Shown here piece by piece: positions 46,398-52,475 of a DNA stretch of 64,000 nucleotides (the first letter of the stretch is position 1; every line of letters starts with the position of its first letter). This DNA is from Candidatus Thorarchaeota archaeon (GTDB taxonomy: Archaea > Asgardarchaeota > Thorarchaeia > Thorarchaeales > Thorarchaeaceae). Where the stretch lies: contig CAVSBO010000003.1 of the NCBI GenBank assembly GCA_963726195.1, forward strand, positions 288,001 through 352,000. Reading direction: 5' to 3'. A model generated the notes under the pieces. The model saw nothing but the letters and a program-made list of their open reading frames with translations. It had not been told where the DNA came from and did no database searches. The position numbers were made by a program, and so were the translations under genes.

Positions 46398-47862
46398 ATG
46401 ATCGACCTAACAAAAAACGATGCTCAGCTCAAGCGGAATATCCAGCGCTGCAAGGAGCGCAGAATAATCATACCAACATTCGGTCAACTCAAGGACCCGA
46501 AGACAGTTCCTGAGAAAGTCAAGTCGCGGCTCAAGACCATAGGACTGTGGGATATTGCTCCCGAGAATCTGTTCAGGATAACTTGGAAAAACGAGCCGGT
46601 CGAGAAGGGCGGATTGTTCACTACTTCACCGAACTTCCTTGAGATTCCCACCTGAGCTGACAGGGGTTGAAGCAAGAATCATTGCATTGATTGGCAAGTG
46701 GTTCCCCACAGGGTCGCACAAGGTGGGCGCCACCTTCGGCTGCTTGGTTCCTCGTCTCGTTACAGGTCAGTTTGATCCTACAAAGCACAAGGCTGTTTGG
46801 CCCAGCACTGGTAACTTCTGCAGAGGAGGGGCCTACAATGCAACTCTTCTCGGGTGTGACAGCATCGCCATCCTCCCACAGGGTATGTCAAAGGAGAGAT
46901 TCGACTGGCTCAAGACAGTTGCAGGTGAGATTATCACCACACCCGGCAGCGAGAGCAACGTCAAGGAAATCTATGACAAGGTCTGGGAGCTGAAGAGAAC
47001 GCGAAATGACATATTCGTGTTCAACCAGTTCGCTGAGTTCGGCAACTACCTGTTCCACTATGATGTCACTGGTCACGCCATGGAGGAGCTGATTAAGAAA
47101 GAGTCAGGCAGCAGTCATTACAGAGGCGTGTGTCTGACTACCGGCTCCGCAGGCACAATCGCGTGTGGAGACTATCTGAAGCAGGCATATCCGACTTCCA
47201 AGATTGCGGCAGGGGAAGCCGTTCAGTGTCCTACCCTCTGGTTGAACGGCTATGGGGCTCATCGTATCGAGGGCATAGGTGACAAACACGTTCCTTGGAT
47301 ACACAACGTACGGAACACTGATATGATCATCGCAATCGACGACAACGACCCGCTGAATCTCATCAGATTGTTGAATGAGCCTGCAGGCCGCGAGTATCTG
47401 GTCAAGCAAGCGGGAGTGTCTGAAAGTCTAGTCTCGAAGCTAGACCTGCTGGGAATATCAAGCGTTGCCAATGTTCTGATGGCCATCAAGTTCGCCAAGT
47501 ACTATGAGCTGACTCGAAAGGATACTGTGCTTACAGTCTTCACTGACTCGATGTCGATGTATCAGTCCAGACTCAAAGAGGCGACGGAGTCTCATGGTGC
47601 CTATACCGAGAAAGATGCCATCAAGGACTATCACAGACATCTCATGGGACAGAAGACAGATGCCATGACTGAGCTCACATTCCCCGACAGAAAGCGTGTT
47701 CACCATCTGAAGTACTTCACTTGGATTGAGCAGCAGATGTTCGATCTCGAGGAACTGAACCGTCAATGGTACGATGAAACCTACTGGACCGGTAATCAAG
47801 AACTGACTCCCAAGATAGACCGGCTAATCGGTGAGTTCAACGAACGAGTCGGTTTGGCCTAA
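46398..47862 (+). CDS. PLP-dependent fold-type II enzyme (cysteine synthase/TrpB-like; frameshift near 46648)
   Basis: FPTGSHKVGA (PLP Lys), PSTGNF, TGSAGT, HRIEGIG. Confidence 0.88.
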
Positions 47863-47958
47863 GCAGTTGCTTAGCTGTGAGCGGACAGGACTCACCATAT
47901 CCCAACGGACGTCGTCCACTCATGTCACGGTAGTCTACAGATGCCGCTGGTCTTGATC

Positions 47959-48388
47959 TCATCCCTTGAGGAGCTGGCGAATGACAGAAACGAACTCAGT
48001 GGCATCAGCGATTACATTCGGAATCGCTTCGAACAGCAACTGGTAGTCGACCTCAAGATACTGGTGAACAAGTAGGTTGCGCATCGAAATCATGTTCTGA
48101 AGGCTCTTCGACAAACGAGAGTCCAACACACCGTTCTGTTCAAGAATTGCAATCATTTCCCTGTATGAATCAGGAATCCCCAATCGCCTTTGGGCGACGA
48201 TATGACTAGCCACATCCACGACTGACTGAGCTACTCAGCTCGAATGACCGAGCAGTCGCCCGGAGAGTCTTTGCATCCGCGATGAATCGTTCATAGTTAG
48301 GAATGCGGACCGTCTTGAGGAATTCAACTTCCTTGATGATCATGGCCAGTCGTTTGTTTAGCAGTTTTGCATCAATTGCCACAATCAC
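47959..48388 (-). CDS. HEPN/DUF86 RNase toxin (HepT-like; frameshift near 48220-48240)
   Basis: RNLLVHQY (Rx4H-Y) motif; start overlaps MNT stop. Confidence 0.85.
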
Positions 48389-48784
48389 TCGCCGCCCAAG
48401 AACTCATTCAGAAACCTGTCCTCGGAGACCGACCAGTCAGGATAGTTGATCAAGACCTGCTCGACAAATCGATTCCAAAGACCCTCCTCCCGCTCGTAGA
48501 GAACGAGCCCGTCGTGTGCAATTCTGTGAGCCAGTGACCAATTGACATCCTCAATTGTGACGAAATCGAAGGCGCGCTCAGGACCTGTGAACTCGCCAGT
48601 CAGGACAACCCTTAGTTGCGATCTCTCTAGCCTCGATAGTGAAGGTACTGATACTGCGACGTCGTGGTCACTTCTTGGTCCTGATTCGTCCCTCAGCTCT
48701 GGACCCAAATAGAACTATGAAGTCAATCGGACAATTCGCGCTTGACAAGACTCGCCTCACGATGTCTTCCGAATCCAAGTGCAT
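48385..48784 (-). CDS. Minimal nucleotidyltransferase antitoxin (MntA-like; frameshift near 48690)
   Basis: MHLDSEDIV...IVLFGSRAEG then PRSDHDVAV (GSx10DxD); GGTGA RBS. Confidence 0.85.
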
Positions 48785-49130
48785 GATTAATCTCACCAAG
48801 CTGTCACGTGGCTGCCTTGAGCCCTGTCCGATAACGAGAATTAGCGTCAGTCCATATAACGCTTGGGACTCGCGTGTTTTTCCACATAGGATACCATCTG
48901 TCGTTTCTGGTTCTCTTCTTCTCCAAGCCTATCTTGTGGGGCCAGAGTAAGCATCGGACCAATCTCGAACGTCCTTCTTCTTGCCCCACGGCGTATTTTC
49001 TGTATTATACTCTGCTATGACTTTCCTTCAATTGCCGATAGCAGGTGCTTTTCGCAGGTAATTCTTGTCCACAACTTGCTTGAGAATGAAATCCGCCAAA
49101 TCTGCTCTTGAGATGGCTGTTCCTACTTGA

Positions 49131-49319
49131 CCGTTCATTGTTAGTTGGACAAAGTTGGACACAGGAGTCTCTGTCCGCCCAGAAACGGCACTGGGCTCAA
49201 ACTCCTTGAGGTCAAGTTTGTGTCGTTTCAACCTCGAAGGCTGATTCCTTATCAGGGCATATAAGCTCCTACGAGGAGGTGTCCAAGTTTGTCCCAGCTT
49301 TCTGCAGCTGCCGCGTGCC
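49131..49319. mobile_element. ~185-bp non-coding inserted element, copy L (MITE-like, IS607-like core)
   Basis: Flanked by CC on both sides; paired TTGGACA/TGTCC(A/C)A subterminal motifs; homologous to copy R in inverted orientation. Confidence 0.75.
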
Positions 49320-49529
49320 CTGAGTGCGAGAGCTTCAATTGACGCGCTCAATTTCAGAGCGAAAGCAACGATTGCGCTGGTAAAACTCATGATGCGTCCA
49401 GCATACGAAGAGATTGTCCACGTTGCAGAAATTGTCCGGGGCTCCGATCGCGATCGGACGATAGTACGCTTATCATTACTCAACAATAATCCCAAATCCG
49501 GTAACGTTAGAGTCGGCTACATAAGCAAG

Positions 49530-49716
49530 GGTTGACAACAGCTGCATAGAAGTTGGACAATCTTGGACATTCTGGAGTAGGAGCTTAAATAGCTCGGACC
49601 AGACTTCTCTTTGAGGTTGACTCGACACACTCCAGCCTCAAGGAGTACGACCCCAGTGCCGTTTCTGGGCGGACAGAGACTCCTGTGTCCAACTTTGTCC
49701 AACTAACAATGAACGG
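49530..49716. mobile_element. ~185-bp non-coding inserted element, copy R (inverted relative to L)
   Basis: Flanked by GG(T) on both sides; 49652-49717 is the exact reverse complement of 49130-49195. Confidence 0.75.
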
Positions 49717-50111
49717 TAGATGTTATGATGAGCTGGCGTACGCCCTGACTCTCCATCGCGGCAAGTATGTTTCGCATTCCTTGCGCAAGTGGCTTTCCCT
49801 TCTTTCGGGCGCGCGGACCAAGCGTGCTAATGACCGCATCCGCGGCGTTCATTGCGGCCGCAATTGCCTCTTGATCTGACAATTCGCCTTAGACAACCTC
49901 CAAGTGTTCGTTCTGCATGTTGAGCTTGGAAGGGTTGCGAACGTATGCAACAATGTCATTTCCTGAAGCAAGAGCTTGTTCTACAACAGGTCTTCCTGTG
50001 CGTCCGGTTGCGCCAAAAACCAGCAGTTTCATCTTTCATCCTCTTGTATGTAGTACTTCAAATTCCCGTCACATTCATCGATAATCTAATGTCTTCCAAA
50101 GAGCTATCAGT

Positions 50112-50848
50112 CTAGAGGTAAGCAACGATTACTACACTGGCAATCATCAAGAGCAGCGTCATGAGCCCGACCTTCCATGAAAGAGTGGTGCTCTCCTTTT
50201 CAACGATAAGGTCAGAGATTACTCCGACGCCGATAAAGAAGGGGAAAATCGCGAGTGCGGAATTGAAGACTCTGAAAGTGATTGAATACATGAGACCCAC
50301 AAAGAAGAGTTTGCCCAGTTCTTGACCGGGTCTTGTATCCTTCATCTGTTCTTCCAACCCGATGTGATGCAAGCTGTAAAAGATGGAGACCAGCAAAAGC
50401 GCCGGGATTATGCCGAATGCTTCCTCGAAAAGCTGTCTCAAGAAGCTGTAGAAGAACAGAGTTTCGAAGAGCACTCCCACCATCAAATAGAAGATTGTCC
50501 CGGATTTCCCAGAGAGATCGGGTCTGTGTCCCTTGTTCTTTGCTTCGGAGTAGAACATCGCAGCAAGCAGGGCCGCCAGTATTATGTCAGCCGCCATTGC
50601 CCATACCAGATTATCTCCCGGCAAACCAAAATCGTTGAAGGAAAGACCGTTTGTCTTCACCCACCATGTCGGGAGCAAGACACCCAGTCCAACAAGGGTG
50701 ATGACATCACGAAGGGCTACTCGGGTTGCTTTGCTGTTCCTAAACACCATCAGCAGACCACTCAGGAGCACGCAAGCAATGGCCGCCAAGAAAGCGACCA
50801 ATGTCCCTTCGGTCACAGACAAGTTGAACAGCAATACAACCGTCGCAT
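50112..50848 (-). CDS. CPBP (CAAX protease/Abi) family intramembrane protein
   Basis: FETLFFYSF (EExxFR-like) and FYSLHH motifs, multiple TM; probable ATG 50848 after AGGTGA requires a frameshift. Confidence 0.7.
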
Positions 50849-51035
50849 TGTCACCTGAGTTGTCCGAGGGATTGAGCCTTCCTCAAATGCGTTTCTCTAT
50901 CGTGGATTCGAGACTATCTGAGCCGCAAACCGCAGGCAGACGCTAGGAGCCTTTCATTTCAGCTTCTGGTTTGATTGAAACTCGCAAACAGACCGTCCGT
51001 CTTGGCTGCCAATCAGCAACCAAGATGGATTCTCA

Positions 51036-52475
51036 TCAGCTTCTTGAACGGTTCTGACGGACTTTGTAATACTGGCAGGTCCGTGACAACGCACCCACGG
51101 CTTCTCCGACATTCCTGAACACAGGCAGTCCCTCAGTGACGAACGTGTTCCAAGTGGCAGTCCTTTGTTCGGGGTATGCTACCTCCGGCACAGCAACGAG
51201 AAGGGGCTTCTGCTGTACCTCGACCACTTCTTTCGCGGCTTTTGCCAAAGCCTTCCAGAAGTCAGGCATTACATCGAGTGCATCCATGATTGTGGCGACT
51301 TGGTGTATGTTGTGCACATCCGCCTCAACGATTATCGAATCGAAAGCCGGGTCCGCCCCAACGAGCCTGATTACCTCGGACGTAGTCTGATCCTCGTAAT
51401 AGTCTGCCGCCATGTCCACAGGGTTACCGAAGCCTGTCCCGACATCCCTTATGATTTCCCTTAGCTTCGTCACGGTGTCTGGTGAAGTTCGAGGAACCTT
51501 GAGTCCCCTTTCAATACAGAGGTCCGTGTAGATGACGCTTGTTCCACCGCTTATCGTAACCATGCCCACGTTGTTGCCACGAGGAACCGGACACTTTGAG
51601 AAGACACTGAGAGTCGCCTCGAGGTCCTCCAAGGTTGTGACAGTAGGCACGTTCGCCTGTCTGAAAGCGGCAGCCCATAGCTCGTTGTTTCCTGCCAAAG
51701 CCCCAGTGTGGGAAGAGACAACGCGAGTTCCCTCCTGAGACCGTCCGCCTTTGAGAATGACAACCGGTTTCTTGGCCGCGAAGCGCTTGAGCGACTCAAC
51801 CAGAGCTCTCCCATCCTTGGCGCCTTCGAGGTACGCTCCAACAGCTTCTGTTTCGCTGTCGGTCTCGAAGTAGTCGAGAATCTCTGAGGCAGTGATATCT
51901 ATCTGATTGCCAAAGCTGAAGACCTTACTAAACCCAAGACCAGACTCGACTCCGCCGGTATAGGTCGCAATTGCGACTCCTCCTGACTGAGACAAAAACC
52001 CGACATTGCCCGGACCTCTTTTTATTGTCGGCATGAACGCGAATCCAAGCTTCGGATAAAGCAGACCCATGCAGTTCGGACCTAGGACCCTCATCGGGAG
52101 GTTTCGAACAATCTGAGCGAGCTCCTTTTCTCTTTGCCTTCCTTCCTCAGTGCCGAGTTCCGAGTAGCCGCTTGTGAAGATAGTGACGCCCTTGGCACCC
52201 TTGGCTGCACACTCTTTGACAACATCTGCAACATACTTGTACGGTACTGAGATTATCGCATAGTCAATCTTCTCTGGGACTTCAGAAAGGCTTTGGTAGA
52301 CTTTGCGCCCGAGCGCCTCTTCTTCTCCTTTCGACACGAGCCATAGCTTCAGATCATGCGGCCATTGAATCATCGAATGGACCCAATAGTAACCCATCTT
52401 CGAGGAGATTCCGACGATTGCTACGGACTTGATCTTGAGAACGTCGGCAATTGTGGGTCTAGCCCGCGTGCTCAT
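51036..52475 (-). CDS. NDP-forming acyl-CoA synthetase alpha subunit-like (CoA-binding) protein
   Basis: GPNCMG, SQSGG, SFGNQID, SHTGALAG phospho-His, NPVD. Confidence 0.9.
   Translation of the reverse strand: MSTRARPTIADVLKIKSVAIVGISSKMGYYWVHSMIQWPHDLKLWLVSKGEEEALGRKVYQSLSEVPEKIDYAIISVPYKYVADVVKECAAKGAKGVTIFTSGYSELGTEEGRQREKELAQIVRNLPMRVLGPNCMGLLYPKLGFAFMPTIKRGPGNVGFLSQSGGVAIATYTGGVESGLGFSKVFSFGNQIDITASEILDYFETDSETEAVGAYLEGAKDGRALVESLKRFAAKKPVVILKGGRSQEGTRVVSSHTGALAGNNELWAAAFRQANVPTVTTLEDLEATLSVFSKCPVPRGNNVGMVTISGGTSVIYTDLCIERGLKVPRTSPDTVTKLREIIRDVGTGFGNPVDMAADYYEDQTTSEVIRLVGADPAFDSIIVEADVHNIHQVATIMDALDVMPDFWKALAKAAKEVVEVQQKPLLVAVPEVAYPEQRTATWNTFVTEGLPVFRNVGEAVGALSRTCQYYKVRQNRSRS

Follow-up and report, generated by a model that had tools for sequence, protein, structure and literature searches.

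The window analysed here, a stretch of 64,000 nucleotides from a Candidatus Thorarchaeota genome (C3:288001-352000), carries an NAD(P)H-binding oxidoreductase gene that lies in three pieces, with the middle piece on the opposite strand from the two ends and a short insert at each junction. The question is how the gene came to be divided in this way, and whether its middle piece is a switch that could still flip like an inverton, as had been proposed in a preliminary description of this DNA. The features are listed below by their positions in the window, where P0001 and P0002 are two intact homologues of 210 amino acids.

49028..49132, minus strand: C-terminal 34 codons and stop of the pseudogene (GQVGTAISRADL...), 88-100% identical to P0001/P0002
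49130..49195, no strand assigned: left arm of a perfect inverted repeat of 66 nt, in which ACC precedes the outer 63 nt of element A; likely recombination substrate
49133..49319, minus strand: element A (187 bp), from subfamily A of the IS607-type miniature elements, reading from left to right end along the minus strand
49320..49529, plus strand: apparently inverted middle 70 codons (LSAR...YISK), exactly 210 bp, Pfam profile positions 106-156, 87-90% identical to P0001/P0002 over all 70 residues
49530..49714, plus strand: element B (185 bp), from subfamily B of the IS607-type miniature elements, reading from left to right end along the plus strand
49652..49717, no strand assigned: right arm of the same 66-nt repeat, in which GGT follows the outer 63 nt of element B; likely recombination substrate
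49715..50032, minus strand: N-terminal part of the pseudogene (106 codons; NAD(P)H-binding family PF13460), Pfam profile positions 1-98, 90-93% identical to P0001/P0002

The oxidoreductase gene begins with a minus-strand ATG at 50032-50030 and runs for 106 codons to 49715, ending in ...RQLIITST. Bases 49715-49716 (GG on the plus strand) are shared by the end of this piece and the core dinucleotide of element B. For all three gene pieces the coordinates and strands first proposed agree with ours, including the 210 bp on the plus strand. The gene was rebuilt by joining 50032-49715 (minus), 49320-49529 (plus) and 49132-49028 (minus), which gives a sequence of 633 nt, i.e. 210 codons and a stop. 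That a seamless frame of 210 codons would result from flipping the middle and keeping one CC/GG core per element had been foreseen, and it matches the DNA of three more distant homologues (L049, L050, L002), which is continuous at both sites (TCTACC-CTnAGT and AAGGG-G/T).

The proteins give the same order. The Pfam family NAD_binding_10 (PF13460) is colinear on the pieces, with profile positions 1-44, 46-98 and 106-156, and the 70-residue middle piece used as a query finds full-length proteins of 210, 210 and 207 amino acids at 90, 87 and 76% identity. Alignment of the rebuilt protein to homologues, which the preliminary description had set as a check, is continuous across both junctions. It is gap-free against P0001 and P0002, with identities in the N-terminal, middle and C-terminal pieces of 93, 90 and 88% to the former and 90, 87 and 100% to the latter, and the residues at the junctions are the same as in both proteins (ITST|LSAR and YISK|GQVG). 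The gap-free alignment over both junctions, the continuous homologue DNA and the colinear Pfam coordinates establish the ancestral arrangement, and this comparison of sequences supports an inversion of the middle segment relative to the ancestral gene.

As it stands, the gene is a decayed pseudogene: it has been interrupted by two insertions and rearranged by one inversion, and it carries a premature stop as well as several non-conservative substitutions. The premature TAA is codon 48 of the pseudogene (49891-49889, minus strand), where the homologues have Gln, and a conserved Trp in the middle piece has become Arg (CGG at 49455-49457); both had been taken earlier for signs of decay, a reading that the homologues bear out. 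Besides these two, there are about five more changes at positions conserved among the homologues, including DPND to ASID (window 49332-49343), just inside the element A junction, and two others. The change from DPND to ASID comprises three consecutive residue changes 12-20 nt inside that junction; these are clustered, while the pseudogene's other changes are scattered, and the cluster could be a repair scar or chance. Gene callers overlook the pseudogene and output a chimeric ORF in its place: the ORF calls contain a chimeric ORF of 155 amino acids at 49028-49495, the only product that the ORF track had been said to give.

The inserts had been described as two inverted repeats of about 185 bp flanking the middle, and we find them to be 187 bp and 185 bp long. 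They are mutually inverted and about 81% identical overall (blastn); the mean column identity of their alignment is 85%, a figure that takes in flanking DNA, and a repeat search reports inverted-repeat arms of 82 nt at 96% between them. The core copies of element A are at 49318-49319 and 49131-49132. Element B has its GG core at 49530-49531 and two TTGGACA motifs at the left end, and its right end is a guide-RNA scaffold tail finishing at 49714. A TATA-like box is present in each element. When folded as RNA together with 20 nt of flank, element B gives a good structure (z = -4.1), and an Rfam search of 48900-50100 with E up to 1 matched no family. A 23-nt direct repeat at 48726 and 49874 (83%) was also considered and looks like chance.

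Whole-genome searches with blastn (2.9 Mb, 19 contigs) returned about 18 short copies and five long elements, whose similarity to the short ones is confined to the first 63 nt. Since the two inserts are part of a repeat family, with about 18 short copies here and dozens in genomes of the same genus, they are not chance. Flanks and ends were tabulated for 33 copies, taken from this genome and from two others of the genus. Before the left end stand A (in 31), C (in 33) and C (in 32); at the right end most copies read ...ACC and continue with CT. The element tips, GTTCATTG... and ...GTTGTCAA, are not inverted copies of one another, and two TTGGACA motifs lie 12-28 nt inside each element end. The two subfamilies are separated by the inner 120 nt or so, where elements A and B differ at about 40 diagnostic columns.

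Copies of the family in two genomes of the same genus (G001 and G003; loci L063-L082) were also inspected. They number in the dozens, are of type B with about 90% identity, and nearly all are flanked by ACC...ACCCT. Several of them lie at contig ends, which implies that the mini-element family fragments short-read assemblies.

Both ends of the mini-elements can be traced to larger elements. The end that is common to the long elements is the 3' tail of genes for TnpB-like proteins of about 720 amino acids (PF07282) with a Cas12f1-like TNB domain and a visible RuvC triad; the 3' ends of these TnpB genes match element B over the 63 nt of its right end. The left end of element B matches, at 39 of 40 nt, L056:472-511, which lies directly upstream of tnpA, the only Resolvase-domain gene in the genome. 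Its coding sequence lies at L056:550-1176, and the product of 208 amino acids has an N-terminal HTH_17/MerR domain followed by a serine-recombinase (Resolvase) domain.

IS607-family elements have a GG core at the termini and in the target, no target duplication and no terminal inverted repeats; their subterminal motifs are repeated, and their TnpA has its DNA-binding domain at the N-terminus (PMC6188088). The copies studied here have a GG core at both termini and in the target and no target-site duplication, with CC before the element in 32-33 of 33 copies. They have short repeated subterminal motifs and no terminal inverted repeats, and they share their ends with an autonomous element encoding a TnpA of the HTH and serine-recombinase type. 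The GG core, the subterminal motifs, the lack of terminal inverted repeats and the HTH-serine-recombinase TnpA identify the inserts as gene-less IS607 derivatives, which have retained both ends and the guide-RNA tail. An origin from IS200/IS605, with its Y1 transposase, was considered because the elements end beside TnpB genes; it was ruled out, as no Y1_Tnp match was found in the genome and the left end is that of the serine-recombinase tnpA.

An element of 8.1 kb (C3:854970-863116; L056) has the same left and right ends as the mini-elements, and carries tnpA (208 amino acids), reverse-strand ORFs of 312 and 1223 amino acids without a Pfam match, and a frameshifted TnpB of about 700 amino acids. 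An intact TnpB-like ORF of 722 amino acids is found at C16:26999-29169 (L051:1500-3668); Pfam recognises only its C-terminal TNB domain, and the N-terminal 600 residues or so are without a family match.

The target in the TnpB reading direction is AGGGT. Of the three AGGGT/ACCCT sites in the rebuilt gene, two read ACCCT (nt 98 and 316) and one reads AGGGT (nt 527); those at nt 316 and 527 are occupied and lie on opposite strands. We propose that the oxidoreductase gene was struck twice by non-autonomous IS607-family miniature elements, each of which would have entered an AGGGT site by exchange over the GG core, presumably mobilised in trans by the single serine-recombinase TnpA of the genome. 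Because the two AGGGT sites are on opposite strands, the target rule leads directly to the head-to-head position of the elements, with left ends inward and 210 bp apart. This accords with the earlier proposal of two related elements inserted 210 bp apart in opposite orientation, and the subfamily difference between A and B (inner 120 nt, about 40 columns) shows that these were two independent insertions.

Two inverted copies bracketing an inverted segment are also the textbook outcome of replicative DDE transposons, in which an element that transposes to a nearby site of the same molecule in inverted orientation is copied while the DNA in between is turned round, all in one step. A one-step replicative inversion of this kind is refuted by the copies themselves, which are only about 81% identical and belong to different subfamilies, and IS607 moves by serine-recombinase exchange, not by replicative DDE chemistry (PMC6188088). 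We give this explanation practically no weight.

In the preferred reading, homologous recombination, or replication template switching, would have taken place between the near-identical right-end portions of A and B, and the exchange would have inverted all DNA between the exchange points, including the 70 middle codons. Inverted homologous repeats are present at both breakpoints as a perfect 66-nt repeat, and the ancestral order is verified externally by the colinearity of the homologues. That recombination between the elements inverted the segment was also the earlier view, and with the outer 66 nt identical it is the most economical cause. The historical interpretation in the preliminary description is supported.

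How far the identity of the two arms speaks for exchange between them was judged from the other copies. The outer 63 nt of A and B are identical, and they form the only pair with zero mismatches when the short copies of the genome are compared two by two (153 pairs, median 8 mismatches), and again when each pair joins an A with a B copy (200 pairs, median 6). Position 45 of element B is G, the A-type base, where 21 of 24 other B copies have T, and C at position 39 is common to A and B and found in just one other copy. The outer 63 nt are conserved throughout the family, with 1-3 mismatches among young copies, so the perfect identity of A and B is only moderate evidence for an exchange. Just one other A/B pair is physically adjacent (C8:162254 and C8:162523, in direct orientation with 85 bp between them), and it too has an A-type outer part in common, with one mismatch, which indicates that neighbouring copies of the family exchange sequence. 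After a simple crossover, one of the two elements would be expected to carry a B-type outer part, which is not seen, and an extra conversion step must therefore be assumed.

At the same place on contig C8 (162254-162707), two direct mini-elements break a plus-strand gene (ORFs 160932-162125 and 162653-164932). The A-type outer 85 nt or so of the B-type copy there are nearly identical to those of its neighbour, which suggests gene conversion between the adjacent copies. A second inverted pair (C8:160933, minus, and C8:162254, plus) was examined as a possible similar flip and rejected, as the surrounding gene pieces are all on one strand and show no inversion.

The TnpA serine recombinase of IS607 might itself have inverted the segment, through a strand exchange of the Hin/Gin kind at the GG cores where the two left ends face each other (or at those of the outer right ends). 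Both breakpoints are element ends with identical CC/GG cores in inverted orientation, the genome has an apparently intact tnpA, and subunit rotation in a paired-end complex would give an intramolecular inversion (PMC6188088). Any exchange between A and B gives an identical final sequence, be it homologous at some point of the shared part or catalysed by TnpA at the GG cores, facing or outer, so that nothing in the sequence favours TnpA over homologous recombination. A synapse of left end with left end would place the binding arms differently from the normal left-right pairing, we found no published report of TnpA inversion at GG cores, and the homogenised outer 63 nt favour a homology-based exchange. 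We therefore regard the TnpA route as unlikely. If it were true, the segment could still flip whenever TnpA is expressed. It is similarly doubtful that head-to-head pairs of IS607-type mini-elements form natural, reversible TnpA-driven invertible cassettes that are independent of homologous recombination; it would mean a side activity of the invertase type, which has not been reported for serine transposases. The likely route of the flip is homologous recombination or a template switch from one arm to the other.

A different objection is that the insertions are real while the middle is in its original orientation, with the assembler having taken a wrong path through the 66-nt perfect inverted repeat. 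The genome is metagenome-assembled (88.9% complete, 3.9% contamination), de Bruijn graphs are classically ambiguous for a segment with a perfect inverted repeat at its borders, and either orientation gives structurally normal elements. However, the repeat of 66 nt is shorter than usual reads and than the largest k-mers of common assemblers. All of the approximately 18 short copies lie inside contigs here (the longest being 916 kb), unlike in G001 and G003, where several end contigs, which argues that the present assembly resolves the mini-element repeats. An assembly artefact is accordingly improbable, and the orientation of the middle segment, which we take from the assembly, is presumably correct.

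With the inversion taken as real, the remaining question is whether it is a functional inverton, i.e. a reversible switch turning a gene or promoter on and off. A segment between inverted repeats has the architecture of an invertible element, and the TATA-like box in each element would be compatible with a promoter switch. No dedicated invertase was found beside the segment: the sole Resolvase match in the genome is at C3:855244, about 500 kb off in the 8.1-kb transposon, and the sole tyrosine recombinase (Phage_integrase) match is on another contig, C17. Nor would flipping alter expression or coding output, as either orientation leaves two inserts of 185 bp and the TAA at codon 48 in the gene, and the pseudogene locus is without an orthologue in the 40 relatives searched. 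With no invertase nearby and a gene broken in both orientations, the suggestion that the segment could still flip like an inverton is not supported, and we consider a functional switch highly improbable. Any low-level flipping by recombination would have nothing to regulate, and the inversion is without function. Taken as a whole, two insertions of IS607 mini-elements, followed by a homology-based, functionless inversion within what is now a pseudogene, is probably the correct explanation.

The surroundings of the gene were compared with those in relatives. The flanking genes encode a PALP enzyme (46639-47862) and a CoA ligase (51036-52475) and are conserved in relatives; they are 0.2-1 kb apart in three of these genomes (G002, G003, G007), where the gaps between them have nothing in common with the 3.2-kb segment found here. 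A search with the middle piece in 40 related genomes gave no match. Judging from these comparisons, 47863-51035 is a variable spot of the chromosome that is absent from the relatives compared. Besides the pseudogene, this 3.2-kb segment holds a weak remnant of a Polbeta nucleotidyltransferase (48385-48708) and an Rce1-like membrane protein (50112-50834). Among named genomes, the nearest for a flanking gene are Candidatus Thorarchaeota MAGs, at 78% identity, and the best species-level genome match of the oxidoreductase is a Bathyarchaeia MAG, at 60%. This match, in a segment without a counterpart in relatives, suggests that the oxidoreductase gene is probably accessory and possibly transferred.

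Three events, two targeted insertions and one inversion, would thus be recorded in 1 kb of an Asgard archaeal genome. From the locus, an IS607-derived mini-element can be defined to the base in its ends, its core and its AGGGT target rule. That neighbouring copies of such elements exchange sequence and rearrange host DNA is useful for the annotation of Thorarchaeota genomes. It is a well-resolved case of a known kind of event, an inversion between inverted copies of a mobile element, with no new mechanism and no regulated switch.

Among known systems, the elements resemble IS607, IS1535 and ISC1926 (PMC6188088) in their GG cores, the absence of duplication and of terminal inverted repeats, the subterminal motifs and a TnpA with HTH and serine-recombinase domains. 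Unlike IS607 transposons, the copies here are gene-less and about 185 bp long, with only two ends, a TATA-like box and a guide-RNA tail; the target preference extends to AGGGT, and the partner TnpB has about 720 amino acids. As in the Hin/Gin or tyrosine-recombinase invertons of phase variation, a segment lies between inverted repeats in the 'wrong' orientation; in contrast to these, the segment has no invertase beside it and neither a promoter nor an alternative coding output, and either way round the gene is dead. The MITE-associated inversion in Neisseria is likewise linked to a MITE, but there the element itself inverts and changes the direction of a promoter, whereas here it is the host DNA between two separate elements that appears inverted. 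A further likeness is to inversions by homologous recombination between inverted copies of an IS or a MITE. MITEs are known as hotspots of such recombination (PMC10969869), and copies of IS605, IS606 and IS607 are found at inversion breakpoints in Helicobacter pylori (PMC8002640). In these cases, as here, inverted copies of a mobile element bracket the segment and flipping it back recovers the ancestral order; the present case differs from them in that a 210-bp segment within a single gene is bracketed by IS607-derived repeats of 185 bp, with a 66-nt substrate, in an Asgard archaeon.
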